From the IMG/VR virus record IMGVR_UViG_2687453145_000002, positions 32,001 to 96,000 of that record: 64,000 nucleotides of DNA; one strand, given 5' to 3'. The translations under genes and the position numbers were made by a program. The stretch comes from a virus. Lineage: Duplodnaviria > Caudoviricetes. Below are positions 2,211 through 47,216 of the stretch, in pieces. A model generated the notes under the pieces. It was not told where the DNA came from. It ran no database searches and saw only the letters and a list, made by a program, of their open reading frames with translations. Every line of letters begins with the position of its first letter. The first letter of the stretch is position 1.

Positions 2211-2231
2211 CTTGGCCATATTCATATAACT

Positions 2232-2256: not shown

Positions 2257-2270
2257 GCCTAAGATCCCCC

Positions 2271-3968: not shown

Positions 3969-5157
3969 TGATCAACGCCCAACCCAAGGCCCCTGAGAAA
4001 GGTGGCCTCGATACCCCGCGCCTGCTCAAACTGATGAGCGATATCAACGGCCAGCCTGACTGGCGCTCACTTGCCAATCGCGCCTGCGCCTACTACGACA
4101 ACGATCAACTGCCACCTGAGGTGGTCAAGGTGCTCAAGGAGCGGGGCCAACCCATCACTATCCACAACCTCATTGCCCCGACTATTGATGGCGTGCTGGG
4201 GATGGAGGCCAAGAGCCGCACCGATCTGATGGTGATCGCCGATGACCATGACGATGAGCTCGAGCAGCTGGCCGAGGCCGTCAATGCCGAATACGCCGAC
4301 ATGTGCCGCCTGGGCGGACTGGACCGCGCCCGGGGCGAGGCTTACGGCGGCCAGATCAAGACCGGTGTGGGCTGGGTGGAGGTGTGCCGGCGCGATGACC
4401 CGTTCGGCCCGCGCTACAAATTCAGCAACGTCCATCGTGATGAGGTCTATTGGGACTGGCACAGCCGAGAGCCGGACCTGAGCGACTGCCGCTGGCTGAT
4501 GCGTCGCCGCTGGGTCGATCTGGATGAGGCCAAGACCATGTTCCCGAGCAAGGCTCAAGCGTTGGAGTGGGGCGTGAATGACTGGGCGGGGGTTGTCAGC
4601 TTGAGCGCCGTAGAGGGGCTCGACCCCAACCTGGTCAGCGCTTACGACGAATGGAGCCAGTTCAGTGGTAAGGAGGTGGAGTGGTGCAGCCGTGAGCGGG
4701 ATCGGGTGTTGCTGCAGGTGGTCTACTACCGCACCTATACCATGCGGCAGGTGCTGATGCTCGATTCTGGCCGGGCGCTGGAGTACGACAAGACCAATCA
4801 GTTGCACCTGGCCGCGCTCGCCATGGGCCGGGCCAGGCTGGAACGCCGCCCGGTGGCCGTGATCCGGGAGTCCTGGTTTGTCGGCCCCCATCATCTGGTT
4901 GATCGCCCCTGTACAGCTCCTCACAACATGTATCCGCTGGTGCCGTTCTGGGGATACCGGAAAGACCGCACCGGTGAGCCATACGGGCTGATTGCTCGGG
5001 CCATGCCGGCGCAAGACGAGGTGAACCTGCGGCGAATCAAGCTGACGTTCCTGCTGCAGGCCAAGCGCGTCATCATGGACAAGGACGCCACCAACATGAG
5101 CCGGGATCAGGTTCTTGAGCAGGTGGAGCGCCCGGATGGATATATCGAGCTCAACCC
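2664..5157 (+). repeat. ~2.5-kb apparently identical direct repeat, copy 1 (partner 61185..63678)
   Basis: Offset 58,521; ORF translations match in all frames; bounding mismatches at 2663/61184 and 5158/63679. Confidence 0.85.
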
Positions 5158-6094
5158 TGACCGCGCCAACAAGACCAGCGTGAGCGATGCCTTCAAGGTG
5201 GAGCAGGACTTCAACGTGGCGGCCCAGCAGTTCCAGGTGATGCAGGACTCGGTGAAGCTGATCCAGGACACCATGGGGGTTTATGCCGCCTTCCTGGGCC
5301 AGGGCTCCACCGGGCAGTCCGGCGTGGCTATCAGCAACCTGGTGGAGCAGGGGGCGACCACGCTTTCGGAGATCAACGACAACTACCGGATGGGCTGTCA
5401 GCAGGTGGGTCAGCTGGCGTTGGCCTACCTGCTGGAAGACATGGCCGGCAAGCGCAACTACAAGGTGACCGTGAACCGCGATGACCCCCGCCGCCGCAAG
5501 GCCGTGGTGATCAACGTGGAGCAGGAGGATGGCAAGCTGACCAATGATGTGACCCGGCTGCGGGCTCATATCGCCCTAGCGCCGATCCAGCAGACAGCCG
5601 CCTACAAACAGCAACTGGCCGAGCGGATGACCCAGGCCATGTCGCAACTTCCGCCAGAGGCGGCAGGTGCCTGCTTTGACCTGCTGGTCGAGCTGATGGA
5701 TGTACCGCGTAAGGCTGAGTTCGTGGAGCGGATCCGCAATGCCCTGAACATCCCGAAAGACCCGGACGAGATGAGCGACGAGGAACGCGCAGCCGCCGAG
5801 CAGCAAGCCCAGCAGGCCCAGATGCAGCAGGAGCTGGCCATGCGCGAGATGCAGGCCAAGCTGGCCGAGCTGGAGGGCAAAGCCGCCAAGTGGCAGGCAG
5901 AGGCTCAGCGCATCGCCAAGCTGACGGACTCCATCCGGTTCGAGGATGCCCTCAAGCAGGCCCAGACAGGCAAGACATTGCAGGAGATGGAGCAGTTGGC
6001 AGCCCAGCAGCAGGCGATGCAGACAGAGCAGGCAGCCCTGCAGGCGCAGCTGTTGGACACCATCCAGCAGCAGATCGACGCCATCGCGCTCTGA
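3968..6094 (+). CDS. Portal protein (P22/N4-like, with C-terminal barrel coil)
   Basis: 708 aa after terL; YYDNDQ and GVGWVEV motifs, SGVAI near C-terminus, Q-rich coiled coil. Confidence 0.9.
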   Translation: MINAQPKAPEKGGLDTPRLLKLMSDINGQPDWRSLANRACAYYDNDQLPPEVVKVLKERGQPITIHNLIAPTIDGVLGMEAKSRTDLMVIADDHDDELEQLAEAVNAEYADMCRLGGLDRARGEAYGGQIKTGVGWVEVCRRDDPFGPRYKFSNVHRDEVYWDWHSREPDLSDCRWLMRRRWVDLDEAKTMFPSKAQALEWGVNDWAGVVSLSAVEGLDPNLVSAYDEWSQFSGKEVEWCSRERDRVLLQVVYYRTYTMRQVLMLDSGRALEYDKTNQLHLAALAMGRARLERRPVAVIRESWFVGPHHLVDRPCTAPHNMYPLVPFWGYRKDRTGEPYGLIARAMPAQDEVNLRRIKLTFLLQAKRVIMDKDATNMSRDQVLEQVERPDGYIELNPDRANKTSVSDAFKVEQDFNVAAQQFQVMQDSVKLIQDTMGVYAAFLGQGSTGQSGVAISNLVEQGATTLSEINDNYRMGCQQVGQLALAYLLEDMAGKRNYKVTVNRDDPRRRKAVVINVEQEDGKLTNDVTRLRAHIALAPIQQTAAYKQQLAERMTQAMSQLPPEAAGACFDLLVELMDVPRKAEFVERIRNALNIPKDPDEMSDEERAAAEQQAQQAQMQQELAMREMQAKLAELEGKAAKWQAEAQRIAKLTDSIRFEDALKQAQTGKTLQEMEQLAAQQQAMQTEQAALQAQLLDTIQQQIDAIAL

Positions 6095-19006: not shown

Positions 19007-20518
19007 ATGAGCGTATCGGGATTGGCGGAAGGTTTTCTGGCTGGCTTCAACACCATGGACCGTTATCAACGTGGCCAGAAAGAAGATGAGCGGATGGATA
19101 AGGCCATGGGCCTGCGAGATGCCATGTGGCAGAACGAGCAGGAGCGGCAGAAAGTGGCAGATGAGCGCTACCAGAGCGAGCTGGCGTACCGCGAGGGGCG
19201 CGATAAGCTGGCGGATGCCAGGTATGACAAGCAGGTCACCCTCACCGAGCGGCAGATGAAGGAGTCAGAGGCGCGAGCCGGTGCTGCTGAGCGGCGAGCG
19301 GCGGCACAGGAAGCTCGGCAGCAGCAGGAGTATGAGTGGCAAAAGACACTGCGGGACAAGCAGCTTTTCCAGCAGGAGAACCTGCCGATTATCCAGTCTG
19401 GCTGGCAGGCGGTGGCCGAGGGCAAAGACCCTGGCCAGCAGTTCTGGAACGTGGTGCGGGATCCGCGGGCTGGCTCCTTTAACCCGGAGCGCTACCTGCA
19501 GCAGGATTATGCCGAGGCTGGCAAGACCTTTGTTACCCATGCTGGCAATCTGATGCGCCAGGCTCAGGAAGGAAAGCTCGACCCGACCACACCCGAGGGG
19601 CACGCTGCCGTCAATAACCCTGACTTCATCAAGGCGGCCGGCACCCTCTATCAGGATGAGGTCAACAAAGGCGTGGGCGACATCGATCCGGAAAGCGGCA
19701 AGACCATCACCGGCAAGCAGTTGAACAACATCATGATCACCCCGGACGGGCGTGGCGTGGTATTGGGAGTGGAAGTCACCTATGACGACGGCAGCAAGGC
19801 CGTGCGTCCGGTCACCAACAACCGCACTTCTGCGCCCGATGATCACCCCAAGGTCATCCCCATCAACGACTTCTTGAAGCCTGCCTACCAGCGGGCGGCC
19901 CTGGCCAAGCACATGATCGGTAACGCCGACCAGCTGCGCGCATCGCTTGGCCTGACGGCAGGCCCGGATCAGGCGGGATACAAGAAGGCTGTTGCTGACC
20001 TTGAGAAGCAGCACGGCCAGAACCGCGCCCGGATCTCCTCCAGCAATGCGGAGGATAAAGACCTGCAGCTCGATGCGCTGGATACCCAGCTTGAACAGAG
20101 CAAGGAGGCGCTGGCTGACACCTACGGCCTGACCACAAAAACGGATGAGCCAAAGCAGGAGGCGCCACTCAAGGCGTGGACCGGGGGCGATCCCAAGCGC
20201 CTGCAGTTTATCAAGGAGGCCAACCAACATGGCAAACTGAGCAGTCTGCTGGATTCCCCGGCCAAGATGAACACGGCCTTTGAGCTTTGGCGCCAAGATG
20301 TTGCGAAAGAGGAGGCAGCCAAGCAAGCGGCGGCATCTGCTGAGAAGGTGCGCAACATGGAAGGAGGTAAAGATCAGCCGCATAACTACCGCGCAGCAGA
20401 AGAGGCGGCCGTGAATGCGGTTATTGCATCATTTGCAAATGGACAGCCGACGCTCAACAAGGCACCAGATGGTGCGGCAGCCTATCAGGCGATGAGCCTG
20501 GCCCAGGCTCGCCGATAG
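19007..20518 (+). CDS. Putative DNA-ejection protein
   Basis: GLAEGFLAGF N-terminus, Q/E/R coiled coil, precedes giant gene. Confidence 0.65.
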   Translation: MSVSGLAEGFLAGFNTMDRYQRGQKEDERMDKAMGLRDAMWQNEQERQKVADERYQSELAYREGRDKLADARYDKQVTLTERQMKESEARAGAAERRAAAQEARQQQEYEWQKTLRDKQLFQQENLPIIQSGWQAVAEGKDPGQQFWNVVRDPRAGSFNPERYLQQDYAEAGKTFVTHAGNLMRQAQEGKLDPTTPEGHAAVNNPDFIKAAGTLYQDEVNKGVGDIDPESGKTITGKQLNNIMITPDGRGVVLGVEVTYDDGSKAVRPVTNNRTSAPDDHPKVIPINDFLKPAYQRAALAKHMIGNADQLRASLGLTAGPDQAGYKKAVADLEKQHGQNRARISSSNAEDKDLQLDALDTQLEQSKEALADTYGLTTKTDEPKQEAPLKAWTGGDPKRLQFIKEANQHGKLSSLLDSPAKMNTAFELWRQDVAKEEAAKQAAASAEKVRNMEGGKDQPHNYRAAEEAAVNAVIASFANGQPTLNKAPDGAAAYQAMSLAQARR

Positions 20519-20628
20519 TTGCCTTTCACCTACCCCAGCGTTAGCATCTCTCCATCGTCGATCAGTCTGCATGCTGATCGCCCCATCTCAAAAGCCCCAA
20601 ACGGTTCGCCGCTCGGGGCTTTTCTTTT
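20519..20628 (+). promoter_or_regulatory. Late promoter+terminator unit 3
   Basis: TTGCCT-17-TAGCAT with AGCGT before -10, CGATCAG hairpin, then AGCCCC...GGGGCT with T tract. Confidence 0.6.
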
Positions 20629-20648
20629 GCTCGAAATCCGAGGACACC

Positions 20649-23600
20649 ATGGACAAACTTGGACTGCGTGACGCCCTGCCACAGCCGCAACAATCTGACA
20701 CCCGCAATGACCCTTTCTGGGGCAACCTGGATAGCAGCCTGTCTGCTGCCGCGGCTGCACCGCCCCAATCAGCCCAGCCGACTGCCAAGCGCGACCTTGA
20801 TGTCGGTCTGGGTGATGTGGCGCGCGGGGTGGGTGCGGGCGCATTGGAGCTGGTCGGCGGCATTGGCGAGCTGGCAAGACAGGCCAGCAACTTCGGCAAG
20901 GAGAACGCTGGCAAGCAGGGTGGGGATTATCTGGAGCAGGCCCGGGCCAATATGGCCAACAAGCTGAGCCCTGTGCTGGATGCGGTTGCAGGCGCAGGTG
21001 ACCTGGCCCAAGGGGGAGCTGAGTCGCTGACCGAGGGAATGAGCGCGGATGCCAAGGAGGCACTGGGGCGCCGGCTGGTAGATGAAACACCGGAAGGACG
21101 TTTGACCCTGGGGGATGGTGCAGGGGATATCGATGTCTGGGCCATGAAAATGGCGCAGGGGGTTGGCTCCCTGCTGCCGACCCTGGCGGCGGGCGGCGTC
21201 ACAGGATTGGCAGCCAAAGTCTCTATTGGCCGTGCGGTCACCGCATCCATGATCAAGCGTGGCGCGACCCAGGAGGTAGCCGAAGCGGTCGCCGCCAAGG
21301 CAGTATCCAAAATTGCCACCGGCGCCTCTGTGACCACCGGGGTGACCGGATCGGTGGGCAGTGCCGGGGTGAACGCCCGCGACACTGTGCTGGGAATGAG
21401 CTTTGACGAGCTGGCGGGCAGCGACACCTTCCGCCAGGCGTTCACTCGCATCGACCAGGATCAACAGACCGCCCATCTCTCTGATGAGGAAAAGCTGGGG
21501 CTGGCCCGTGAGGAAACGGCCAACTTGGCCAGCCGAGCCACTATGAGCGACGCCAAGGTGTGGGGAGCTGCCGCCATGGGTTCCATGATGGGCGACGCCA
21601 TGCTGTTCAAGATGCTGGCTGGCAAGGCGGCCACCGGTGGAGTGCTGAAAGGTGCTGCCAAGGGGGCGGCAGGTGAGGGTATCAGCGAAACCCTGGAGGA
21701 GGGGGTGCAGCAATACGCCGTCAACGAATCTCTCAACGAGGTGGCCGCCGCTGATATCGACCCGATGAAGGGGGTCATGTCGAGCGCGATCGAGGGCGGC
21801 TTGATAGGGATGGGGGCAGGTGGTGCGGTAGGTGCTGTCGGTGGGGCGCGAGGCGGTAAGCATGCCAGCCAGGAAGATGGCGTTGGGACCGATCCGGTTT
21901 CAGAACCTTCCGCGCCGGTGACGGAGGGCGCTGCTGGTCCGGCAGTGGATCCGAACTTTGCTTCTGTTCCACTGGAAGAAGGCGAGCAGGCGCCCTCCGC
22001 CTCGCTGGCCGAGGGGGAGCTGAATCCGCTCGGCCCCAGCGCAAGCCAGTTTGACGAGCTGCGTGATGTTCCCGCCTATCTGCGTCAAGACGATACCGCC
22101 GATCGCTACAAGGGGATGGCGGCTGATAGCGAGGTGCAGCGCGCCTTGGCGGGTGAGTTCGGCCAGACCGTGCAGGAGCTGGTTGCCTCCCAGATGAAGG
22201 CTGGCGATCAGGGCAAGAGCCTTTATGAGCGAGCTCAGGCTGGCGAGCTCGGGCTTGACCCGTTCGCAGGCAACAAGAGCGCCCAGCAGGTAGCCATGGA
22301 GAACCAGCGCCTAGCCCTGCCGCTCAAGGATGTGATCTTTGCGGGCGATGCCAATGCTAAACCCAAGGGGGAGGCAGTGGCCGCACCTGGGGATCACGAT
22401 GACCAACAGGCTGGCCCCGGCCCGCAATTCCGAGGTGGTGAGCGTACCCGCTGGCAGAGCGGGCAGGAGGGGGATGTGTTGCCGCCAGAGGCATCTTCCA
22501 CCAAGCCCGCTGGCGAGCTGCCGGGCGCGGTGATTGAGGGTGAGGCCCGCGAGGTGGGTAACGAGTTGCCGCACCGCAATGTGGTCTATGGCAATGACTT
22601 GCGCGCCGAGCAGCAACGGGCCGCCGATCTGGCCCGCCGTGAGCGCGAGCTGAACAACCACCCCCTGCAGATCGGTCAGTCAGAGACCATCTTTGCCGGG
22701 GGCACACCGGGCGCTGACCCGCGCAATAGCGCCTATACCCCGCCCAGGCTGTCACGGGATCAGGTCGATACCAGCATGGGCGAGCAGTCCACCCGCGATC
22801 CGCGCAGCCCGGTGGCGCAGTCCATCGAGCAGGCAGGCAGCGCCACCGATTCGGTATTTGGCCCGCTCAAGTCGTTGCGCATCACCCGCAAAGGCAAGCC
22901 GTTCGCAACCGAGAAAGAGGCTGCCATGGCCAGCCGCAAGGGCCAGGAGATGCCGGTGCCGCTCAATGGCGGCGGCTTCGGGGTGGCCGAGATCGCCGAA
23001 GTCGAGCAGGTGAAGGCGGCTGCAACCACGCAATCAAGCGCCCCACAACTCGACGACATCAGTGTCACCAACCCGAATCAACCATCTGATCAGCCAGCTG
23101 CAAGCGTAAGCGCTGAAACAGTTCCGGCGCCGTCTGCCACCGCTGGCGAGGCCAGCCAACTAGCACCAGCCATCGATACCGGATACCGCGAGGTGATTCC
23201 CGTCAAGCAACCCAAGACAGAGGTGAGCAATGAGCCAGTTACCCCAGTACCTGCAATCAGCAGTGAAGGACAACGCGATCAGCCTGGCGCAGGCGAACCG
23301 GCTGCAGCAGGCGCTGGACCAGCCGTTGCCGGACTCACCGACCGAGCTGGATCCGGAGATCGGGCAGATCTCGCTGCGCCTGCACCTGTACCTGACGGAC
23401 AGCAGCAAAATGACCCAACACTGACAGCCCCGGCCACAGATGCCGGGGCTGCTGTTTCTGGCCGTATTGGCGAGGAAGAGTTGCGAGATCGCGACCTGCT
23501 AAAAGAGCATGGCGGGCACTGGAAGTATCGTTCTGCAGTAGGCGCAGGCTGGTTTACTGCCAACACCAAGGAGGCCGCCATTCAGCGTGCCGAGGAGGCA

Positions 23601-26600
23601 TACCGCAAGGCAGTATCCAAAGGCGAGCCTGTGCCCACCAGGGATGAGCGGTTCGCACAGGCAGACGCAGAGCTGTTTAGTGAAATGGATCGCCGCTACG
23701 GAAAGATGTCAACTCCCGAGCTTGAAGCAGAGTACCAGCGACTTGGTGGCGAGGTTGGCGATCTGCAAAAATCAGGCTCTGGCGAGTTCAACGGCAATGG
23801 CGGTCGCCGCACTGGGGCTGCTGTATCCAATGAAGGTGCTCGCCAGGTTGGTGAGGAACGCTTGCGCCTTGGCGTTTACATGAAGATGCGCCGCGACCGC
23901 GATACCGCGTGGTCGGGAGCCAAGTCGCAGCAGATCGAGCCAGCCAACGACTGGCGCGGCGCCAAGAGCGCAACGGATTACCACGCCGCGAAGCGTCGCC
24001 TGTTCTCTGGCGAGATGGAGTTTTCTGAATTTCAAGCGATGAGCCGTTCCGCTCTGGATAACGCCCCCTCCCTGCGGGCTGAGCTGGAAAAGAAAACCAA
24101 GCAGGATTTGCTTGATCAGATGAGCCGCTTCAATGCTGCCCGCTACAAAAATGACAAAAAGGCCGTCGTGGTCGAGGCCGCATACAACCAGCTGATCGGT
24201 GATCTGCGCTGGGCTGCCAATGGTGATGGCAATACCATCAGCGAGACCTATGCCATCGGCGGCGCCAGACAGAGTATCGAAGAGCGAGTCGCCAAGGCGC
24301 TGGATGGCCTCACCCCTGAGCGGTATCAGCAGTTCGTCAACAAGCAGCGGGCGGACGTGGCCAAGCGCGATGCCGAGTTGGCCGCCACCAAGGAGGCGCT
24401 GCGCGACCCGCAGACCCTTGAGCAGTTCAAGACCTTCCTGAAATACCGCTCGCTGGACAAGCTGACCCCTGAGCAGCGCGCCCGCTATGAGGATTTGATC
24501 GCCGCCAGCAATCTGGACAAGCGGGATCAGGCCAACGAGGTGAAGGCTGCCACCGCCGTGACCCCGACCGCCAGCGGCGACATTATCAAAACCAAGCACA
24601 CCAAGAGCGGGGAAGACCTCTTTGTGGTGCAAATGGGCGACCGGGTTGACCGCGACACCTATAACCAGATCAACGCGCACGCCAAAAAGCTGGGCGGCTG
24701 GTATTCCTCTTACAAGGTCGGTGGCGCCGTGCCGGGCTTTCAGTTCAAGGATGAGGCCAAGGCCACCGAGTTTCGTGGTTGGTTGACCGGTCAGGGGGCT
24801 GCCAGTGCCGCCCCGTCTGCCGAGGCAGCCCCCACCGAGGTGACTGAACCTGCCCAGACTGACAGCAAGAGCAAGCAGGTCGAGACCCTGCGCACCCGTG
24901 CCAAGACATTGCGTGACAAGGCCACCGCCGCACTCAATGCCGAGCGCAAGGAGAACACCAACAAGCGCATGACCGAGGCCGCCAACGCCCGCGCCAATGC
25001 TGAAAGTGAGTTGCACTTTGCCGGGTTGCTTGATGCCATTGCCGATGGGATTGAGTCTGGCGAGGTGACTTACCTGCGCAACCTGGCTAACGGCACCCAG
25101 TTGACCGAGCTAAACCACGCGCTAAGCCGCAGCTTGTGGAATTTGCCGCCAGCCCGCCGCGAGGCGCTGACCAGTCAGGGGATGATTGAGCGCGCTGAGG
25201 ATGACCGGGAACGTTGGTCTGCCAAGGCCACCCCGGAGATGATGGCAGAAGGGGCGCAAATGCCCGGCATGGATTACTTCGCCCGCAACCTCAAAGATGT
25301 GGCAACCAAGATGCAAGGGGCAAGCGGCTTCAAGCAGGCCGGGGCCAAGATCATGGCGCTGGTCAATGCGGCGATCAATCGTGACAGCAAGACGGTTTCC
25401 ATTACCGATCCTGAGCTTATCGCCAAACTCAAAGCCTACACCAGCGGGGTGAGCGACTACGACGCCAAGGCGGTCAAGGAGCAGATCAACGGCTACAGCC
25501 GCTTGGAGCGCATGGGCATTACCAATCATACCGAGTTGCGCGCCGCCCTGCGTGAGCTGGCTCGTCTGCAAGCCGTGTTGAAAAAGCAGGCCGTGCCGCG
25601 CGACCCGTTAGCCGAGAAGATGGTCGCGCTAAAGCGCAAGTTGGTCGGCAACCGTAATGCCTTTATCGACTTCTTCCCGACCCCTGAGAGCCACGCCGCC
25701 GATCTGGTGACGCTGGCCGGGATCGAGCCTGGCATGACGGTGCTGGAGCCATCTGCCGGGCATGGCATGTTGGCCGAGGCGGCGCGCGCTGCCGGGGCCA
25801 AGGTCGATGCGGTGGAGCTGGCTGTTGACCTGCGCGAGATATTGCAGGCGAAAGGGTTTGGTCTGGTGGGGGGCGATTTTATGGACACCACCCCGGCCCA
25901 GTCTTATGACGCCGTGGTGATGAACCCGCCGTTCTCCAATGACATGGATATTGACCATGTACGCCATGCTTATGACCACCTCAAGCCGGGCGGGCGATTG
26001 GTGGCGATTGTGTCGGCCACGGCGGGGGATCGCCAAAACAACAAGAACAAAGCCTTCCGTGAGTGGTTTGACGGGCTAGGAGGCAGTGAGCAGGCCATGC
26101 CGGATGGCGCATTCAAGACGTCGCTCAACCCTACCGATGTGCGTACCAAGATATTTGTCATCGACAAGCCCGCCAACGAGGTCAAGCCGCTGCTGTCGCC
26201 AGAGGGCAAGCGGGTGACGGTGGCCACCCCCAAGGGGCAGAGCGTCGAGGTGCAATACCGGGTGATGGAGGCTGCCGATCTGGTGGCGTCCCACGACTTT
26301 GAGGGCAATCTCAACCACGACTACCCGCAGCAATTGCAGCCGCGTGACCGTAGCAAGCAGACCTATCGGGTACAGGTGGGTCAGATTGCTGCCGCGCCGG
26401 ATGGGGCGCGCCTAGCCGCCAGCCCGGAGACCGACCGGGGCGCGCCGATTGTGCGTGACGGCATTGTCGAGAGTGGTAACGGGCGCACCATTGGCTTGAA
26501 GCAAGCCTATCAGCGCGGTGATGCCGGGGCGTATCGCGCTTACCTGCTGACCCATGCCACCGAGTTTGGCCTTGATGCTGCCGCCATTGAGGCGATGAGC

Positions 26601-29600
26601 GCGCCGGTACTGGTCCGCGAGCGGCTGACCGAGATGGACGATCAGCAACTGCGTGACTTCGTGGTGGACTCCAACACCGACGCCAAGATGGCGAACAGTG
26701 CCGCCGAGGATGCCGGCGCCGACGCGGGCAAGCTGACAGACGACATGCTGGATCTGCTCAACATCCCTGAGGGGGGCGACGTACTGGCGAGCCAGAACAA
26801 CCGATTCCTCCAGGCGTTCCTGTCTGCCATCGGCGAGAACCAGAGCAACAGCTATGTGAGCCGGGACGGGCAGTGGAATGATGCCTACCGCAAGCGGGTG
26901 ACGGCGGCCATCTTCGCCTACGGCTACGGCAACCAGCGGCTGCTGGATGCGGCCACCGGCGAAGTGGACGCGGACGGCCGTAACATCACTACCGCCCTGA
27001 TCAACAACGCCGTGGGCATGGCCAAGTTGCGCCAGCACTCGCCGGAGCGGGCCAAGGTTATCTCCAACTACCTCGCCGAGGCAGTGGAGAGCATCGCCCG
27101 CGCCAAGCGCAGCGGGCAGTCCCTGCAAGAAATGGCCGCTCAGTCTGATATGCTGGGAGGCGACACCAGCCCAGAGGGCAGCCTGCTGGCCCAGGCCATC
27201 GCGGCCAGCGCCCGCAGTGCCAAGGCGATCACCGGCATGGTTGGCGACATCCTGACTATGCTCAACAAGACCACTTCCGCCGACATGTTCGGCGCGGCGG
27301 TGGACCCTGCAACCCCGGAGACAGCGATCAATGAAACCCTCAAGGCCATCAGCGCCTACAACCAGCAAAAAGCCAGCCAACCCAAGCCCGGCGGCGATCT
27401 TTTTGGCCTCGCCGGAGCACGGAATAACCACGGCGCAGCGCCAAGCGTTCCGCGATCTGGTGACGCAAGCGCAGCAAAAGGCGCAGGAGGAGTAACCGAG
27501 GGGCGCCTCGAGCTGGACGGGGTAAGTATCCGTATTCCGGCCATCGACGAGGAGCAGCAACGCCTCTACAACCAAGCCACCCACCGGGGCCAGGGCGTGA
27601 ACTTTGCCAGCGGCATCAGCACCGGCGTGGGGCGGATCCTCAATGACCTGAAGGATGCCGGCCTACTGGACACGGTAGAGCAGAGGGCGGCCGCCGAGGC
27701 TGAGGTGCAAGCCTGGGCCAATGAGGAGGCCATCAACGCCCGCAAGCTGATGCGCGACGGCATCAAAAACCCGAGCTGGGCGATCACCGGCCGTTCTGGT
27801 CGCAAGGCCCAGAGCAGCGACGCCCAGGACGCCGAGAACCGCCGCCAAGCCGCCCACCACAAAGACCAGTCAGACCGCATCACGGCCCTGCGCGGAGAGC
27901 TGAAGAAGCTGCGCCCGAAGGAGGTGATCGGGAAAGATTCGTTCAACTACGCATGGGGCAAGGCCAAAGGCATGATCGCCGACTACGCCAGCGCCCAGAG
28001 CAACGGGCAGCCCAATCTGCTGGCCAGTCTGCGCAAGAGCATGAATGCCGAGCTGGCCCGCTACCTGCAATCCATGGGCAAGATCGACGCACCCAACTTC
28101 ATCAAGACCCTGAAGGAGCAGGATCAGCGCCTGAAGGCCGCCGGCCATGACGGCTTGGTGGCCATCGTGGGTGCGCGCTCCAACCCGGGCAAGATCATCT
28201 CCAACGCCATCGATGGCCGGATCCGCTTCTCCAAGCAAGCCATGTCACAAGGGATGCGACCTGCTAAACACCTGACTCGCAAGGAGGCTGAGCTGGTAAC
28301 CAAGGGGTGGTTCAAGCAGTACCGCGGCGCTTCCGGCATAGATGTGCAGATCCACGCAACCCAGGCTGAACTGGAGGAATCCCTCGGGCTGGATGCCAAG
28401 GACGGATTGATCCGTCGCGCGGCGTTTGACGACGATGCAGGCACTCTCCATGTGGCTGCCGACACCATCTCCGACCCCAAGCGGATGCGCGAGATCCTGC
28501 GCCATGAGGTGCTGGCCCACTACGGCCTGGCCAACGTCCTGGGTGATGGGGAATACACCAAGCTGATGAGCCGTCTCATCCAGTCGCAGAAGGACCCCAG
28601 CATGAAGCCGGTGTGGGACTGGGTAAACACCCATTACGCCGACGAGGACATCGGCACCAAGGCCGAAGAGGTGGTGGCTCACCTCGCCGAACTGGAACAG
28701 GGGGCTTGGGGCCGTGGCTGGGATCGGGTTGTTGCTTGGGTTACCCGGGCGCTGCGAGCGGTCGGTTTTGTGCCTGATGGCATTACCGCCGCGGAGACGC
28801 GTTCCCTGATCGAGGGACTGGGCAAGAAGTTGCAGCGTAGCGGCCCAGACGACAGCGGGCCGGATGGCGGCAAGAAGTTCAGCCAGGAAGCCGAGCGGCC
28901 AGCCCTGAAAGGCGGTATCAAGATGAGCCAGGCCAGTACCGCAGCTGATGCGGCCATGGAGAAGCTCAACCTGGGCCCCAAGCCCGACATCATCGACAAG
29001 ACCAAAACCAACCTGAACAAGCTCCGTCAAGTTGACCGTGGCGTGGTCAGCTCATGGGTTGATCGCGTCATCAAAAAAGCCAATACCGAGGTGCTCGACG
29101 CGCTGGCCCCCATCAAGTACGCCGAGGAGGCTGCCGGCATTACCGATGCTGCTGACTCCGGCTATGTGGCTGCACGGATGGCGACGGGGGCCGCCTCCAC
29201 CATGCAGGCGACCATGCTTTACGGTTTGCCGGAGTGGAAGGATGGGGTGATCCAGCGCAAGGCGGGCACCGGCGAGAAGGATGCGCTGCTGGGAATCTTT
29301 GCCGACCTGGGAGCTGACCTGCACAACTGGCTGGGCTGGATGGCCGGCCACCGGGCCGAGCTGTTGCTGGCCCAAGGGCGTGAGAACCTTCTCGACGCCC
29401 AGGACATCGCTGCCCTCAAGGCTCAAGGTAAAGGCAAAGAGGCCAAGTTTCTTGACGCCAAAGCGCGCTGGAATCGGCTCAATGCCGCCACCCTGGACCT
29501 GGGACAAGAAGCTGGGCTCTTCACCAAAGAGGCCCGGGCGGAGTTCGAAAGCGAGTGGTACATCCCGTTCTTCCGCGAATCCGACGACGGCGACGTGATC

Positions 29601-31502
29601 GCCCCATTCAAGACGAAGGGCATTGCCAACCAGAACGCCGGCATCAAGAAGCTCAAGGGCGGGGAGGCCAACACCAACGACCTGCTCGAGAACATCTTCA
29701 CCTCCACCTCCAAGCTGATCGACGCGTCCATGAAGAACATGGCGGCCCAGAAGACGGTTTGGAACCTGGCGGATACCGGCATCATCGAGGTCATTCCGAA
29801 GCCAAACAAGATGGATTACCAGGCCCTTGCCAATGGCAAAGACAGGATCATGGTCAAGCTGGAGGGGGAGGACTACATGATCCGGGTTGAGGATCCGGAC
29901 CTCTATCGCGCTATGACCTTCTTCGACCGCAAGCCGTTCGGCGCCATGGTCAATGTGGCGGCCAAGGCCAAGCGCCTGCTTACTGCTGGGGTCACTGCAT
30001 CTCCCGAATTCATGCTGCGCAACTTCCTGCGCGACTCACTCTCCAGCTGGGCGATCAGCAAAGACGGCTTCAGGCCGGTGATCGACTCCATCAAGGGGGT
30101 GAAAAAGACCCTGGCGATGGACGGCAGTACCATTGATGTGATGTTCAGCGGAGCCTCCTTCCTGGGCGGCTACGTGAATGGCAATGACCCAGAGGCGATG
30201 GCCGATACCGTGCGTAAGTCGCTGCGACGCAAGGGGATGACCCCGGAGCAAATCGCCCGCTACGAAAAGAGCATTATCCGCAACGCCGCTCAGGCAAAGG
30301 GCGTGGTTGCCAATGTGTGGGAGAAGTACAACCGCTATGGCGAGGCTTTCGAGAATGCCAACCGCGAGGCGGTCTATGCCGCAGCCATCAAGGCTGGCAA
30401 GAGCCACGCCCAGGCGGCGTTCGAGTCGAAGGACCTGATGGATTTCTCCATGCTGGGTGCCTCACGCACCATGCAGGTCATGACCCAACTGCTGCCGTTC
30501 TTCAATGCCAGGGTCCAGGGTCTCGGCAAGCTGAGCCGTGAGCTGCGCGACAACCCGCGCGAGATCGCCAAGCGTGCCGGCATGATCACGGCAGCAAGCC
30601 TGGCGCTGCTGGCCCTCAACTGGGATGACGAGCGCTATGAGAAGCTGCCGGACTGGGACAAGGATGCGAACTGGCACTTCTGGATTGGGGATGAGGAGTT
30701 CCGCATCCCCAAGCCGTTCGAGATTGGGGTGTTGTTCGGCACCATCCCGGAGCGCATGGTGCGCGCCATGGGCGGGAAGGACACTGGCGCGCAACTCGGC
30801 AAGGCGATAGCCAGGGCGGTCGGTGAAACGTTCGCGCTCAACCCCACGCCGCAGATCGTCAAGCCGTTGGTGGAATCCTACTTCAACTACGATGCCTTCC
30901 GTGGCATCCCCATCGAGAACGCGCAGGACCTCGCAGTGCAGGCGGAGGCTCGCTACAACGAGCAGACCAGTCTGATGATGCGTGAGCTTGGCGAAACCCT
31001 GGGTATGTCACCCAAAAAGCTGGAGCACCTGCTGATCGGCTACACGGGCACCATCGGCAGTTACGTGATGGCGGCGGCCGATGGCCTGATCCGGGCCGGC
31101 ACGCCCGGGGAGTCTGCAAGCTGGCGCGCCGACGAGATCCCGCTTGTGAAAGCGGTGTACCGCGGCACTGGCCCTGCAAAGTCCACGCAGCACATGGAGG
31201 AGTTCTACCGGATGCTGAACGAGGTGAACCAGCTCAAGCGCACCGTTGACCAGTACCGCAGTGAGGGGCTCACAGATAAGGCCCGCGAGCTGCTGGAGGA
31301 GCAGGGTGGGATCTTGAAGTCGCGCCGCAGCCTGAGCCGCACTCAGCAGCAGGTCCGGGTGGTGCGCAACAAGATCGAGCTGATCCAGCGCGACCGCACA
31401 ATGACCGCAGAAGAGAAGCGCCGGCGCATCGATGAGATGCTGGCCCGCCGTAATGACCTAGTGTATCAGGCAGTCAATAAGAACAAGGCGAACTGGGAGT
31501 AA
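20649..31502 (+). CDS. Giant (~3617 aa) polyvalent internal virion protein: N6-adenine MTase, DdrB-like ParB, zincin-like and LPD38-like domains
   Basis: DFFPTP/LEPSAGHG/NPPF (~25670-26170); QPRDR/ESGNGR (~26200-27000); HEVLAH (~28503); RIPKPFEIG (~30700); AGGA RBS at 20641. Confidence 0.85.
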   Translation: MDKLGLRDALPQPQQSDTRNDPFWGNLDSSLSAAAAAPPQSAQPTAKRDLDVGLGDVARGVGAGALELVGGIGELARQASNFGKENAGKQGGDYLEQARANMANKLSPVLDAVAGAGDLAQGGAESLTEGMSADAKEALGRRLVDETPEGRLTLGDGAGDIDVWAMKMAQGVGSLLPTLAAGGVTGLAAKVSIGRAVTASMIKRGATQEVAEAVAAKAVSKIATGASVTTGVTGSVGSAGVNARDTVLGMSFDELAGSDTFRQAFTRIDQDQQTAHLSDEEKLGLAREETANLASRATMSDAKVWGAAAMGSMMGDAMLFKMLAGKAATGGVLKGAAKGAAGEGISETLEEGVQQYAVNESLNEVAAADIDPMKGVMSSAIEGGLIGMGAGGAVGAVGGARGGKHASQEDGVGTDPVSEPSAPVTEGAAGPAVDPNFASVPLEEGEQAPSASLAEGELNPLGPSASQFDELRDVPAYLRQDDTADRYKGMAADSEVQRALAGEFGQTVQELVASQMKAGDQGKSLYERAQAGELGLDPFAGNKSAQQVAMENQRLALPLKDVIFAGDANAKPKGEAVAAPGDHDDQQAGPGPQFRGGERTRWQSGQEGDVLPPEASSTKPAGELPGAVIEGEAREVGNELPHRNVVYGNDLRAEQQRAADLARRERELNNHPLQIGQSETIFAGGTPGADPRNSAYTPPRLSRDQVDTSMGEQSTRDPRSPVAQSIEQAGSATDSVFGPLKSLRITRKGKPFATEKEAAMASRKGQEMPVPLNGGGFGVAEIAEVEQVKAAATTQSSAPQLDDISVTNPNQPSDQPAASVSAETVPAPSATAGEASQLAPAIDTGYREVIPVKQPKTEVSNEPVTPVPAISSEGQRDQPGAGEPAAAGAGPAVAGLTDRAGSGDRADLAAPAPVPDGQQQNDPTLTAPATDAGAAVSGRIGEEELRDRDLLKEHGGHWKYRSAVGAGWFTANTKEAAIQRAEEAYRKAVSKGEPVPTRDERFAQADAELFSEMDRRYGKMSTPELEAEYQRLGGEVGDLQKSGSGEFNGNGGRRTGAAVSNEGARQVGEERLRLGVYMKMRRDRDTAWSGAKSQQIEPANDWRGAKSATDYHAAKRRLFSGEMEFSEFQAMSRSALDNAPSLRAELEKKTKQDLLDQMSRFNAARYKNDKKAVVVEAAYNQLIGDLRWAANGDGNTISETYAIGGARQSIEERVAKALDGLTPERYQQFVNKQRADVAKRDAELAATKEALRDPQTLEQFKTFLKYRSLDKLTPEQRARYEDLIAASNLDKRDQANEVKAATAVTPTASGDIIKTKHTKSGEDLFVVQMGDRVDRDTYNQINAHAKKLGGWYSSYKVGGAVPGFQFKDEAKATEFRGWLTGQGAASAAPSAEAAPTEVTEPAQTDSKSKQVETLRTRAKTLRDKATAALNAERKENTNKRMTEAANARANAESELHFAGLLDAIADGIESGEVTYLRNLANGTQLTELNHALSRSLWNLPPARREALTSQGMIERAEDDRERWSAKATPEMMAEGAQMPGMDYFARNLKDVATKMQGASGFKQAGAKIMALVNAAINRDSKTVSITDPELIAKLKAYTSGVSDYDAKAVKEQINGYSRLERMGITNHTELRAALRELARLQAVLKKQAVPRDPLAEKMVALKRKLVGNRNAFIDFFPTPESHAADLVTLAGIEPGMTVLEPSAGHGMLAEAARAAGAKVDAVELAVDLREILQAKGFGLVGGDFMDTTPAQSYDAVVMNPPFSNDMDIDHVRHAYDHLKPGGRLVAIVSATAGDRQNNKNKAFREWFDGLGGSEQAMPDGAFKTSLNPTDVRTKIFVIDKPANEVKPLLSPEGKRVTVATPKGQSVEVQYRVMEAADLVASHDFEGNLNHDYPQQLQPRDRSKQTYRVQVGQIAAAPDGARLAASPETDRGAPIVRDGIVESGNGRTIGLKQAYQRGDAGAYRAYLLTHATEFGLDAAAIEAMSAPVLVRERLTEMDDQQLRDFVVDSNTDAKMANSAAEDAGADAGKLTDDMLDLLNIPEGGDVLASQNNRFLQAFLSAIGENQSNSYVSRDGQWNDAYRKRVTAAIFAYGYGNQRLLDAATGEVDADGRNITTALINNAVGMAKLRQHSPERAKVISNYLAEAVESIARAKRSGQSLQEMAAQSDMLGGDTSPEGSLLAQAIAASARSAKAITGMVGDILTMLNKTTSADMFGAAVDPATPETAINETLKAISAYNQQKASQPKPGGDLFGLAGARNNHGAAPSVPRSGDASAAKGAGGVTEGRLELDGVSIRIPAIDEEQQRLYNQATHRGQGVNFASGISTGVGRILNDLKDAGLLDTVEQRAAAEAEVQAWANEEAINARKLMRDGIKNPSWAITGRSGRKAQSSDAQDAENRRQAAHHKDQSDRITALRGELKKLRPKEVIGKDSFNYAWGKAKGMIADYASAQSNGQPNLLASLRKSMNAELARYLQSMGKIDAPNFIKTLKEQDQRLKAAGHDGLVAIVGARSNPGKIISNAIDGRIRFSKQAMSQGMRPAKHLTRKEAELVTKGWFKQYRGASGIDVQIHATQAELEESLGLDAKDGLIRRAAFDDDAGTLHVAADTISDPKRMREILRHEVLAHYGLANVLGDGEYTKLMSRLIQSQKDPSMKPVWDWVNTHYADEDIGTKAEEVVAHLAELEQGAWGRGWDRVVAWVTRALRAVGFVPDGITAAETRSLIEGLGKKLQRSGPDDSGPDGGKKFSQEAERPALKGGIKMSQASTAADAAMEKLNLGPKPDIIDKTKTNLNKLRQVDRGVVSSWVDRVIKKANTEVLDALAPIKYAEEAAGITDAADSGYVAARMATGAASTMQATMLYGLPEWKDGVIQRKAGTGEKDALLGIFADLGADLHNWLGWMAGHRAELLLAQGRENLLDAQDIAALKAQGKGKEAKFLDAKARWNRLNAATLDLGQEAGLFTKEARAEFESEWYIPFFRESDDGDVIAPFKTKGIANQNAGIKKLKGGEANTNDLLENIFTSTSKLIDASMKNMAAQKTVWNLADTGIIEVIPKPNKMDYQALANGKDRIMVKLEGEDYMIRVEDPDLYRAMTFFDRKPFGAMVNVAAKAKRLLTAGVTASPEFMLRNFLRDSLSSWAISKDGFRPVIDSIKGVKKTLAMDGSTIDVMFSGASFLGGYVNGNDPEAMADTVRKSLRRKGMTPEQIARYEKSIIRNAAQAKGVVANVWEKYNRYGEAFENANREAVYAAAIKAGKSHAQAAFESKDLMDFSMLGASRTMQVMTQLLPFFNARVQGLGKLSRELRDNPREIAKRAGMITAASLALLALNWDDERYEKLPDWDKDANWHFWIGDEEFRIPKPFEIGVLFGTIPERMVRAMGGKDTGAQLGKAIARAVGETFALNPTPQIVKPLVESYFNYDAFRGIPIENAQDLAVQAEARYNEQTSLMMRELGETLGMSPKKLEHLLIGYTGTIGSYVMAAADGLIRAGTPGESASWRADEIPLVKAVYRGTGPAKSTQHMEEFYRMLNEVNQLKRTVDQYRSEGLTDKARELLEEQGGILKSRRSLSRTQQQVRVVRNKIELIQRDRTMTAEEKRRRIDEMLARRNDLVYQAVNKNKANWE
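23230..23424 (+). CDS. Nested 64-aa ORF in +1 frame of the giant gene
   Basis: GAGGTG RBS, strongly G/C-ending codons (CTG, CAG, GCG, ATC), 10-bp hairpin right after stop. Confidence 0.6.
   Translation: MSQLPQYLQSAVKDNAISLAQANRLQQALDQPLPDSPTELDPEIGQISLRLHLYLTDSSKMTQH
27331..27495 (+). CDS. Second nested 54-aa ORF in +1 frame of the giant gene
   Basis: GGAG upstream of ATG; amphipathic AQRQAFRDLVTQAQQKAQEE end with coding-like codons. Confidence 0.4.
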   Translation: MKPSRPSAPTTSKKPANPSPAAIFLASPEHGITTAQRQAFRDLVTQAQQKAQEE

Positions 31503-31575
31503 GGGGTAATAGCGGCCCTAGCTGAGCCTCTGTGATAGGGGTAATCTGGGGCCTTTATCGCAGAGGGCCCTGACC

Positions 31576-31776
31576 ATGTGGATTCTGTTTGCTCTGATAA
31601 TGATGGTGGTGGCGCTGAAAGCATTCAGTGTTAGTTTCACCCTAGCGTTGATACCGATAGCGATAGGGGTCTGGTGTTTCAGTAAATCCAACCGTGAGAG
31701 CCTGGATAACTTCATGGCCTTCACTTTCATCATTGTACTGATTGGTTTTGCTGTGAATGTGTTGGTTTCGCCTTAG
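31576..31776 (+). CDS. Small hydrophobic membrane protein
   Basis: GAGG RBS; almost entirely hydrophobic with one polar loop. Confidence 0.65.
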   Translation: MWILFALIMMVVALKAFSVSFTLALIPIAIGVWCFSKSNRESLDNFMAFTFIIVLIGFAVNVLVSP

Positions 31777-31958
31777 TAAGGTGTAAGTTGCGCATCACTC
31801 TCACCAAGTGATGTCTTGAACATACTGGTTTCACGGATCTATGTCACATTGCCGTTGGCTAGTTTTGTTAGGCTCAACTTAACTACCGAAATGGTATTGA
31901 TCTTATTGCTTAGTCATGGGATAAGAGGCAGACCCAACTTATGCACAGGATGTGCGTA

Positions 31959-31987
31959 TTGACAATTGGGTGCGTTTTTGGTATAGT
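31959..31987 (+). promoter_or_regulatory. Near-consensus sigma70 promoter of moron
   Basis: TTGACA-17-TATAGT with extended TGn. Confidence 0.8.
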
Positions 31988-32017
31988 ATTGCGACTCGAA
32001 AATCGATAGAGACTCGT

Positions 32018-32779
32018 ATGACCACCACTGTGTGCGATTTCATTAACAGGGTTGTTGCAAGTGATTCTCGGTGGTCAACAAAGTTAGATGATTATGGTTT
32101 CTACAACCATATCGCTTTTGTCGATGACACCGGTTTTGGAAAGTTGTCGATAAGAGGCAATCACGTCTTATGCTTAGCAGGTGACGGGAAGCTTATCGAG
32201 CAGTGGAAGCAGTGGTGGAAGGCGCCGGTTTTGTATCGGGAGCATCCTCCGGTAGTTTCCGATGCTGGGGCTGTAGTGATCTATGCAATCAATAGAGCCA
32301 CTAATCAGCTCGAGTTTGGGCTTCAATTGAGTTGCGCTCACTTAGACCCAGACACTCGCCATATACAGGCTGTTTTTTCTGGTTCTGGCGAGACGGCTGC
32401 ACTGTCAAACTGGCAATCAGCCAAATGCGCTAAAACCGCAGTAGAGCAAGCAAAGCTCAGAGACGTGTTTACAGGTGGTACTGTACGTTTCGTCAATTTG
32501 AGCACCGATGAGATGGACATTGAGGATGAATTGGATTCCCTTGATGCTGTGCTTAATCAATTGCAAGAGAGAGGGTATGTTATGAGACAAGACGACCCCA
32601 TGAAAACTATGATTCCTGTTAAAGAATTTGACGCAAAAACTATATCGGCCCTTGCATCAAACGGTTCTTTGCAGCTATCCGCTCCTTGTGGCAACGAGGC
32701 TGTTGTCTGGGATGAGGCTGCCAAGCATAGACTTGGGGCCTTCATTGATAGAGTTATAGAATCGGAAAGCCGTTCTTAA
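32018..32779 (+). CDS. Ntn-hydrolase (proteasome-beta/HslV-like) moron protein
   Basis: MTTTV start, ASDSR, LAGDG, SGSG, DVFTGG motifs; low GC; own promoter and terminator. Confidence 0.7.
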   Translation: MTTTVCDFINRVVASDSRWSTKLDDYGFYNHIAFVDDTGFGKLSIRGNHVLCLAGDGKLIEQWKQWWKAPVLYREHPPVVSDAGAVVIYAINRATNQLEFGLQLSCAHLDPDTRHIQAVFSGSGETAALSNWQSAKCAKTAVEQAKLRDVFTGGTVRFVNLSTDEMDIEDELDSLDAVLNQLQERGYVMRQDDPMKTMIPVKEFDAKTISALASNGSLQLSAPCGNEAVVWDEAAKHRLGAFIDRVIESESRS

Positions 32780-32798
32780 TCTATTGATATTATTAGCT

Positions 32799-32833
32799 TA
32801 AACCCGTGCATCATGTGCGGGTTTTTGTTTTTT
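32799..32833 (+). terminator. Moron terminator
   Basis: AAACCCG...CGGGTTT plus long T tract. Confidence 0.7.
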
Positions 32834-35083: not shown

Positions 35084-35320
35084 TTTCTTGGGGCATTTTT
35101 GGGGCAAAAAGAGGGGTAAAATACGGGGAAATGCGGTGTTTGATGGGATACATCCGAGGCAATAAAACTGGCCTCAAGCCTTATGCCAAGCGGCTTGGCA
35201 ATGGATCCTGATAGAAATCAATCATTCCTTTGCCGGGAATTGTGGGGGTTGACTATTTATCTAATAAATCAATCGCTTACTGTTGGATCTTTTTTTCTTG
35301 GGGCGTCATTGGGGCAAAAA
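35084..35320. other. attP-like site: paired arm-type repeats, IHF site, core between them
   Basis: TTTCTTGGGGC-N4-TTGGGGCAAAAA at 35084 and 35294; AATCAATCGCTTA (IHF consensus) at 35267-35279; abuts integrase 3' end. Confidence 0.65.
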
Positions 35321-36557
35321 GGCCTTTTGATTGCATCTGCTCCCAGATCCTGACCGCCTCAGATTTGCTCGCCGAGGCGATCCACTTTCCGTAGACGGAT
35401 TGTAACATTTCAAGGTCAGCGTGACCCATTTGCGCTGCAATATACGCGAGATTTCCATGCGACGTCAGGTTCCAACTAGCAAACGTATGCCTAAGTTGAT
35501 AGAAGCGCCGGTATCTTACTCCGGCTCTCCTCATGATGTTGCTCCAGGCATGAGACACCCCGGCGGCGGTGAAGAACTCTTTGGCGTGTGGAACATGGGG
35601 GCCCGTCACCTTAGGCGTGAATACCGGCCTGATGCTCTGGCGCTCGATACGACCGTTCATGTCCACATCTACCGACACCACAGCACGCATGAACGACAAT
35701 GCCATCTGTGACTTGAGAGCTGCGATCACGGGCGGTTGCAGATCAACCTCCCGGGGCTCGTTGGTCTTGGGCAGTTTGAAATAGTCCGATTCGTTACTGA
35801 TGTTCCTGCTGATGACCATGACCCCTTTTTCGAGGTCGATGTCCTCCCAAGCAAGAGCCCTCAACTCGCCTGTTCTAAGGCCAGTATAGATGGCAAGGGT
35901 GATCATGTTTCGTTGCTGCTCGTGGGAGCATGCTTCCAGCAGCCGGGTGTATTCATCAAATTCGAAAGGGTCTGCCGGTGAGGTTTTTCTGGTGGTGACG
36001 GGCCTCACACCTGCTGTGAGTCTTGCTGCATCCGCAAGTAAGTTGTTCTTCTCACACCAGCGAAGCAACTGCCTGAATCGCCCAAGGTAGGTGACGATGG
36101 AGCTGGGTTTGAGTGAGATGTGCAGCTCATTGCGGATCAGCTCTATGTCCTTGGGCATCAGCGTTGAGACCTGTCGGTCCTTACCCAGGACATTGATGCA
36201 CGCCTCAATGGCGAACGGGTAGCCATGACGAGAGGTAGGCTTCAGCATCGGTTTGTGAAGCCGCCAGAAATCCTGATAGGCCTCCCAGATGGTGACGTTT
36301 CGCCGGCTTCCTCCAAATCGAGTCAGTGCTGAGCTGTCAGGGAAATGATGTGCGTAGCTGAAGGTACCGACCGCAATCTCATGCTTGATGGTTGCGAGCT
36401 TGTTGGTGGCAAACTTCACGTTCGCCTTGGTGATGGGGAGGTCGAGGACCTCCCGGCAGCGCGCCCGTTTATAGGTGAAGGTAATGCGCAGCTTTTTGCC
36501 ATGAACCTCCAATCCAGTGACTCCAGCTACTAGATCATCAAGTTTGACTCGACCCAC
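35277..36557 (-). CDS. int: Tyrosine integrase with N-terminal arm-binding domain
   Basis: TGLRTGEL, YQLRHTFAS, MGH, catalytic Y in SVYGKW. Confidence 0.95.
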   Translation of the reverse strand: MGRVKLDDLVAGVTGLEVHGKKLRITFTYKRARCREVLDLPITKANVKFATNKLATIKHEIAVGTFSYAHHFPDSSALTRFGGSRRNVTIWEAYQDFWRLHKPMLKPTSRHGYPFAIEACINVLGKDRQVSTLMPKDIELIRNELHISLKPSSIVTYLGRFRQLLRWCEKNNLLADAARLTAGVRPVTTRKTSPADPFEFDEYTRLLEACSHEQQRNMITLAIYTGLRTGELRALAWEDIDLEKGVMVISRNISNESDYFKLPKTNEPREVDLQPPVIAALKSQMALSFMRAVVSVDVDMNGRIERQSIRPVFTPKVTGPHVPHAKEFFTAAGVSHAWSNIMRRAGVRYRRFYQLRHTFASWNLTSHGNLAYIAAQMGHADLEMLQSVYGKWIASASKSEAVRIWEQMQSKGLFAPMTPQEKKIQQ

Positions 36558-47211: not shown

Positions 47212-47216
47212 GGCGG

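Follow-up and report, generated by a model that had tools for sequence, protein, structure and literature searches.

A small gene probably embedded out of frame in the gene for a giant polyvalent virion protein of an Aeromonas prophage

The stretch of DNA analysed here (hereafter, the window) comprises 64,000 nucleotides (nt), positions 32,001 to 96,000 of the IMG/VR virus record IMGVR_UViG_2687453145_000002, and carries the late region of an Aeromonas phage that is temperate and lambdoid in its organisation, in which genes for the small and large terminase subunits, portal, tail and internal virion proteins are followed by integrase, repressor and replication genes. A giant open reading frame (ORF) of this region contains a second, small ORF (23230-23424), whose translation runs on as ...LHLYLTDSSKMTQH. 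With a probability of roughly 0.85, we consider this small ORF to be a genuine protein-coding gene embedded out of frame in the gene of a giant polyvalent virion protein. The pattern of substitutions among relatives showed that the nested frame is under purifying selection, and that it is the +1-frame amino acids that are selected across them. An earlier reading of the window from its letters alone (hereafter, the sequence-only reading) had proposed a real nested gene at this site, with a GAGGTG ribosome-binding site and a 10-bp stem right after its stop codon; the ORF, the motif and the stem are all present as described there, with the translation quoted, and the comparison with relatives agreed with the proposal, with purifying selection on the +1 frame and an open but unconstrained giant frame over the nested ORF.

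On the single sequence alone, the nested ORF is not beyond chance. When the giant peptide was kept and its codons were resampled synonymously, an open +1 frame of the nested length was obtained with P = 0.083, and several other alternate-frame ORFs of 48-106 amino acids (aa) lie nearby. The case therefore rests on the comparison with relatives. A search of IMG/VR with the nested peptide retrieved 35 loci at 100-63% identity, a search with an upstream motif of the giant protein retrieved 47 loci, and species-representative genomes provided 7 loci, all of them from Aeromonas. The nested ORF was carried by 89 of 90 loci, including every one of the 36 examined at first. Among 50 distinct 800-nt contexts, the ATG was present in 50, the length was 62-64 aa in 50, the giant frame was open in 50, and the hairpin that follows the stop codon was found in 49; in all 50, the ORF lies wholly inside the giant coding ORF, on the same strand and in the same alternate frame. 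Stops in the +1 frame of close homologues, which according to the sequence-only reading would speak against a nested gene, were looked for, and the full-length ORF was kept in all 50 contexts, the most diverged members included. These are L045 (63 aa) and L048 (62 aa), with 62-65% nt identity, in which the ORF is intact; their BLOSUM scores (L045/L048) were 117/110 in the nested frame, 84/82 in the giant frame and 53/46 in the third frame, with no stops in the first two and 4-7 in the third.

Among GenBank phages, Aeromonas phage phiARM81mr stands closest, with about 90% identity at the nested region. Of its 23 substitutions in the nested ORF, 16 fall at position 3 of the nested codons, equivalent to giant position 1 (binomial P = 4e-4), and nearly all 16 alter the giant-frame residue. 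Just upstream (23144-23217), seven of nine substitutions with respect to the same phage are at giant position 3, and over the whole giant gene (10.9 kb), the 744 substitutions are distributed 155/87/502 among codon positions 1/2/3. When the gene was scanned in 180-nt intervals, 23151-23570 was the only part of the whole gene without a maximum at giant position 3 (Fisher P = 4e-7).

A similar pattern was found in the wider set of relatives. Across 26 unique nested ORFs, mean diversity was 0.124, 0.127 and 0.238 at nested positions 1, 2 and 3, respectively; the locus L033, with a 3-nt deletion, was excluded from these ungapped counts. The frame-specific ratio of nonsynonymous to synonymous substitution rates (dN/dS), proposed as a check in the sequence-only reading, was 0.27 for the nested frame when pooled by the Nei-Gojobori method, against 1.26 for the giant frame and 1.16 for the third frame. 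In order to reduce phylogenetic dependence, 21 non-overlapping nearest-neighbour pairs were formed from 42 unique 64-aa ORFs, leaving aside three contexts of 62-63 aa. These pairs showed 71, 79 and 137 differences at nested positions 1, 2 and 3 (chi-square P = 1.3e-6), with position 3 strictly the largest in 15 of the 21 (P = 4e-4). The nested segment forms an island of conservation, its flanks being two to four times more diverse and showing their peak at giant position 3.

The giant frame behaves differently over the same 195 nt. The peptide that it encodes there is 48% glycine, alanine and proline (G/A/P), and among 27 unique sequences, it contained no stop codon, compared to 132 in the third frame. 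Given the nested protein, synonymous resampling left the giant frame open by chance with P = 0.06. In addition, nested codons that precede AA, AG or GA never ended in T (0/442), compared to 47/1285 elsewhere, and the indels found outside the nested ORF were multiples of three (a 3-nt deletion in the loop of the hairpin in L002 and L035, and a 3-nt insertion after the stop in L034). Codon usage also separates the frames: the G+C content at third positions (GC3) of the nested frame is 0.86 versus 0.73 for the phage genes, and an index similar to the codon adaptation index was 0.70 for the nested frame and 0.43 for the giant frame, whereas 65-codon segments of the giant gene had a mean of 0.66 (standard deviation 0.08). 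The giant-frame value over the nested ORF is thus about three standard deviations below the mean of its own gene and represents the poorest codon usage in it. The host-like G/C-ending codons of the nested frame and the atypical codons of the giant frame had both been pointed out in the sequence-only reading. We conclude that the stretch is likely dual-coded, with one frame selected for its protein and the giant frame apparently constrained only to stay open.

Table 1. Positions in the window of the nested ORF, its putative signals and the outer gene.
Feature	Positions	Strand	Description
Outer gene	20571..31502	+	3643-aa ORF, assigned to polyvalent virion proteins; final gene of the late operon
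Shine-Dalgarno of nested gene, GAGGTG	23220..23225	+	GAGGT core ends 5 nt before ATG
Dual-coded stretch, giant-frame G/A/P-rich disordered linker (NEPVTPVPAISSEGQ...DPTLT)	23229..23426	+	Giant-frame dN/dS 1.26; predicted coil in AlphaFold2
Nested gene (probable)	23230..23424	+	ATG, 64 aa, TGA, 7.2 kDa, isoelectric point 4.9; +1 frame of 20571..31502
Hairpin, 10-bp stem and 7-nt loop	23425..23451	+	Begins at the base after the nested TGA
T-rich tail CTGTTTCTGG	23452..23461	+	3' edge of the conserved island; modules diverge beyond

Structure prediction with AlphaFold2 yielded three helices for the nested product (residues 6-13, 19-30 and 42-62), with a predicted local distance difference test (pLDDT) value of 84.8 and a predicted template modelling (pTM) score of 0.67. 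The giant-frame peptide over the same DNA was modelled essentially as coil (pLDDT 61.3, pTM 0.14), in agreement with its composition and with the disordered G/A/P linker anticipated in the sequence-only reading. Alignments from the same 26 loci were used to build both models. The nested product is acidic (isoelectric point 4.9) and has no cysteine, lipobox, signal peptide or hydrophobic N-terminal signal.

A word-index protein search identified 124 relatives of the nested product, nearly all of 64 aa, the named ones corresponding to "hypothetical protein" entries of Aeromonas species, one Klebsiella record and compost metagenomes; most of the 120 homologues listed came from contigs of a few kilobases or less. 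A profile search against 1.84 billion representative proteins gave 12 matches, all from the nested-product family and its fragments, and no more relatives were obtained when the divergent L045 protein was used as query. No family was assigned to the nested product by Pfam, PHROGs, NCBIfam or PADLOC, and a Pfam scan of all 26 alignment members returned only DUF1525 (E = 0.061, in six members). The sequence profile had no matches in the PDB at E values up to 10, the ESM Atlas gave no usable match, Foldseek found no match in the PDB at E up to 0.001, and the best Z score in a wide VIA-align search (5.0) was tied among unrelated helical proteins. A single unconfirmed lead appeared in BFVD, the 110-aa viral protein A8HNW3 (E = 0.084, Foldseek probability 0.97, query TM-score (TMq) 0.62, 30% identity). 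By these searches, the nested product is without detectable relatives outside the Aeromonas prophage lineage.

The region around the start codon has, at the level of sequence, translation start signals of its own for the nested gene. The + strand of the giant gene contains a single GAGGT-N3-8-ATG arrangement, and a Shine-Dalgarno (SD)-like motif was found in the 50 distinct contexts; as read from the upstream sequences, it is GAGGT in all of them except L048 (AAGGGG). The base following GAGGT is variable (G/T/A/C), as a wobble site of the giant frame should be. The start region showed no sign of structure (z = +0.59), and a nested-frame TGA stands one codon before the ATG in most loci (GAGG-TGA-GCA-ATG). 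In phiARM81mr, the ORF corresponds to 50936-51130 of the record KT898134.1 and is absent from its annotation.

The stem after the nested stop codon consists of CAGCCCCGGC (23425-23434) and GCCGGGGCTG (23442-23451), which form 10 perfect pairs, nine of them G-C, and is followed by CTGTTTCTG. Folding of 23405-23475 gave -30.5 kcal/mol (z = -3.2 with respect to shuffles). The pairing is present in 96.7% of cells, with a few single mismatches; one stem pair occurs as G-C (8), G-U (10) and A-U (6), and one double change from C-G to U-A was found. Diversity in the hairpin is equal at all three codon positions, and a search of Rfam with 22800-23800 gave no match. Among the terminator-like sites of the + strand in 20000-32500, the hairpin ranks first, and the tail that follows it has only five T in its 10 bases (loci of the L017 type have CTACATCT). 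Our preferred interpretation, which we would hold at somewhat less than even odds, is that the hairpin and the T-rich tail act at the 3' end of a transcript, marking or stabilising it by weak intrinsic termination or by blocking exonucleases. A role in UGA recoding, with the hairpin as a selenocysteine insertion sequence (SECIS), was also considered, as UGA and hairpin occur together in 49 of 50 contexts; however, the +1-frame extension past the hairpin is 13 to more than 102 codons long, without relationship between loci, and this lack of conservation makes both SECIS and read-through roles unlikely. A -1 frameshift from the nested into the giant frame was rejected too, the sole A-run lying 15 nt from the hairpin and not being conserved (AAA versus AAG).

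At least four types of module follow the T-rich tail, depending on the locus. The order of modules in the window is A-ORF-B-C, whereas in L048, it is A-B-ORF-C, the nested ORF replacing there a 16-residue linker that is present in the window. Between L045 and L048, homology extends from the SD to the stop codon only, with unrelated sequences beyond, and L048 has TAA as stop codon and no hairpin. Because homology in this pair is confined to these limits, the unit that is conserved and moved behaves as the ORF plus its SD, usually accompanied by the hairpin, its phase with respect to the giant frame being constant. The sequence-only reading had suggested that the product could serve a neighbouring domain as chaperone, inhibitor or immunity partner. 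As the downstream neighbours vary among loci and the ORF of L048 sits at another linker, a partner fixed to the adjacent domain seems unlikely, and one elsewhere in the giant protein is still compatible with these data. The further proposal, in that reading, of an overlooked design of polyvalent proteins is not supported in general, as this is the only such site in the giant gene and the family was found, in the species-representative genomes and the representative proteins searched, only in Aeromonas prophages.

Other explanations for the nested ORF were considered. According to one of them, the giant ORF would correspond to two genes with the small gene and a terminator between them, the frame across the small gene being open by accident. 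The terminator-like hairpin after the small gene fits this proposal, as do the poor codon usage and the dN/dS above 1 of the giant frame at this place, and the probability of 0.06 for an open frame by chance is not negligible. Nevertheless, there is no giant-frame stop anywhere, so that ribosomes coming from upstream must read through. Moreover, the flanks share one frame, with no stops in any of the 50 contexts, L045 and L048 included, against the 132 found in the third frame of 27 sequences. The indels outside the nested ORF come in threes, and no SD or start codon for a downstream gene was seen, although no search was aimed at one. We regard two separate genes as very unlikely. A programmed +1 frameshift near 23226-23232, stimulated by GAGGT as in prfB, would in turn give a truncated N-terminal product with a 64-aa tail ending at 23422, and would explain the presence of the SD-like GAGGT just upstream, the selection on the +1 frame and the stable hairpin nearby. 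This would require, however, entry into the +1 frame within a two-codon interval, given the TGA one codon before the ATG in most loci. The site has neither a slippery or hungry codon nor a zero-frame stop or rare codon; the ATG, for which a frameshift would have no need, is kept in 50 of 50 contexts; and L048 possesses SD and ATG downstream of an unrelated sequence. Independent initiation is favoured because of the preceding TGA and the invariant ATG, which leaves the frameshift with a very slim chance.

The possibility that the ORF is fortuitous, its conservation being due to an RNA or DNA element or to recent recombinational spread of the segment, would be in line with a low-diversity island located at a recombination junction and with a hairpin conserved at the nucleotide level. 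Such an origin does not predict, on the other hand, the position-3 periodicity of the +1 frame, a dN/dS of 0.27 in a single frame, the invariance of ATG and stop, indels in multiples of three or a confident fold, and no Rfam match or structure at the start region was found; it is the least probable of the explanations considered. The fourth alternative, to which we give more credit than to any of these three while still finding it improbable, is an autonomous cassette of the moron type, with promoter, gene and terminator of its own, expressed during lysogeny for the benefit of host or prophage (e.g., exclusion or defence) and unrelated to the giant protein. The succession of SD, ORF, hairpin and T-rich tail resembles a gene with its terminator, and the phage is temperate, with integrase and repressor in the window and with phiARM81mr described as inducible by the SOS response (PMC10432266). 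However, a consensus scan for sigma-70-like promoters, other promoter types being outside its scope, revealed none on the + strand inside the giant gene, the conserved island begins about 25 nt before the ATG and sequences further upstream differ, which leaves no room for a conserved promoter, and no PADLOC match was obtained.

Several observations weigh against the reading of a nested gene, or against parts of it. All the sequences belong to one phage lineage of a single genus and are not independent, and the pair L045 and L048 alone, with 7/9/11 differences at nested positions 1/2/3, shows no significant position bias. A column-wise test of stop avoidance in the giant frame was not significant (P = 0.51). 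Covariation in the hairpin is modest, its one two-sided change being matched by 33 of 500 shuffles, and the T-tract is weak for a terminator, while L048 lacks the hairpin. Finally, no fold or family match gives the nested product a function, and the role with the giant protein proposed below is drawn from analogy only.

If the ORF is a gene, ribosomes would start on the late mRNA at its own GAGGT SD and ATG, giving rise to a free, acidic, three-helix protein of 7.2 kDa, whereas those already translating the giant frame would read straight through it. The nested unit would represent a portable cassette, a constant island between shuffled modules. By analogy with the embedded Rz1, which binds Rz, we tentatively guess that the nested protein may assist the entire giant protein, e.g., in its folding, in its packaging or by keeping it inactive before encapsidation, a role that we see as possible rather than probable. 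As for its origin, the small gene may be the older of the two, the giant ORF having grown through it, because the nested frame combines normal codon usage with a predicted folded product, both of which are missing from the outer frame; the same pattern would also result from stronger selection on the nested frame. A broader scheme, which we consider rather unlikely as a whole, would join these elements as follows: the linkers of giant polyvalent virion proteins would serve as landing sites for portable alternate-frame cassettes; the giant ORF would have grown through a pre-existing small gene whose -1 frame was open by luck; the product would be an obligate partner (e.g., a holdase, a packaging chaperone or an inhibitor) made in fixed proportion from the same mRNA; and the hairpin would set this proportion by ending or stabilising a sub-transcript.

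The architecture described here is known from Rz1 of lambda, another small gene that lies entirely within a larger gene of a phage, shares its strand, is read in the +1 frame and has its own start. Embedded o-spanin genes are mostly unannotated according to Kongari et al. (2018, PMC6139136), and in both cases, the embedded gene is of a kind that gene callers usually miss, as exemplified by the absence of the nested ORF from the annotation of phiARM81mr. The overlapped part of the outer protein is also a flexible linker in both. In contrast, the outer gene here encodes a 3643-aa polyvalent virion protein instead of a lysis protein, and the polarity is reversed, with a product predicted to be folded inside and a disordered reading outside. 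In addition, the nested ORF is followed by a conserved hairpin and occupies another linker in one relative. The product itself is not an o-spanin candidate, as it is without cysteine, lipobox and signal peptide, and its locus does not belong to a lysis cassette.

With the overprinted genes of viruses, as treated by Pavesi (2021, PMC8227390) and Sabath et al. (2012, PMC3494269), the locus shares the probable coding of two proteins by one stretch, asymmetric selection and a lineage-restricted product without relatives. The usual rule is that the novel frame encodes a disordered protein with atypical codon usage. By this rule, and differently from the usual case, the giant-frame linker would have arisen later and the small gene would be the older partner, which points to an existing small gene crossed by fusion or read-through rather than to the birth of a small gene inside an old one. 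A close synthetic parallel is provided by the "overlapping, alternate-frame insertion" (OAFI) of Leonard et al. (2024, bioRxiv 10.1101/2024.11.07.622342), an engineered insertion into flexible regions: the arrangement in L048 looks like a natural version of it at another linker.

An embedded gene of a tailed phage validated by comparison and located outside the lysis cassette is of interest in several respects. Genes of this class are systematically missed by gene callers, and the present one bears on how giant polyvalent proteins are assembled from modules, on whether their disordered linkers can hide further genes, and on the origin of overlapping genes by read-through fusion or overprinting; synthetic alternate-frame insertion would also have a precedent in nature here. 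For work of this kind, phiARM81mr offers a tractable system, being described as an SOS-inducible prophage of Aeromonas sp. ARM81 (PMC10432266).

Regarding the outer gene, domain searches with Pfam revealed LPD38 (1e-49, 169.5 bits, cut-off 27) and ddrB-ParB (3e-36, 124.6 bits, cut-off 27.6), together with the methyltransferase models MTS (25.8 bits, above the cut-off of 23) and Methyltransf_23 (26.7 bits, just below the cut-off of 27); the protein also matches phrog_15406. Because LPD38, ddrB-ParB and methyltransferase domains are present, the product is assigned to the polyvalent virion proteins. It has the defining multi-domain make-up and the neighbourhood of virion genes described for such proteins by Iyer et al. 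(2017, PMC5512222), the genes upstream of it encoding terminase, portal, tail and internal virion proteins. A search for terms in the full text of that paper found no occurrence of "overlapping", "frameshift" or "linker", and genes nested in such proteins are not mentioned in it by these terms; a wider literature search, which did not extend to supplementary files, did not find a nested gene in polyvalent proteins either.

The motif ...SLRITRKGKPFATEKEAAMASRK...PVPLNGGGFGVAEI... (22839-23006, giant aa 757-812) lies upstream of the nested gene in all the 47 loci found with it. It is also present in the low-GC relative L089, in which the nested ORF is absent. In one contig (L022 and L077), the giant frame is broken, being open for 223 codons upstream and 520 downstream, and the nested ORF is intact; the break could be due to a decaying prophage or to a sequencing error. 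In the phiARM81mr record (KT898134.1), the giant frame is open from about 47650, the coding sequence p69 is annotated only from 49636, and 47778-49635 is featureless (2779-4636 of the locus L091, which comprises 45000-60012 of this record). The 19 data sets listed as containing the sequence, none of them of RNA, are all assembled contigs from wastewater or aquatic metagenomes, a form in which transcript ends do not show.

Two sets of small terminase, large terminase and portal genes are present in the window (630-6094 and 59920-64000). Their large terminases are identical at 555 of 562 positions, and their small terminases match the same PHROG. The order of the window is that of the late region of one prophage, followed by the integrase gene (35277-36557, - strand), by early genes and by the first part of another late region, which belongs to a second prophage closely related to the first. 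The two sets look like the result of tandem related prophages rather than of a wrapped circular genome.

Immediately after the giant gene, the GC content drops from about 0.62 to 0.43-0.52 (31400-32800). A sigma-70-like promoter with 11 of 12 consensus positions (31959-31987) is located at the beginning of the ORF 31952-32779, whose product matches a PHROG described as HslV-family peptidase (E = 1e-12); this ORF has the appearance of a cargo gene transcribed on its own at the end of the prophage. Finally, the phiARM81mr gene p67 (L091, 1111-1368), just upstream of the virion protein genes, is annotated as "bacteriocin".

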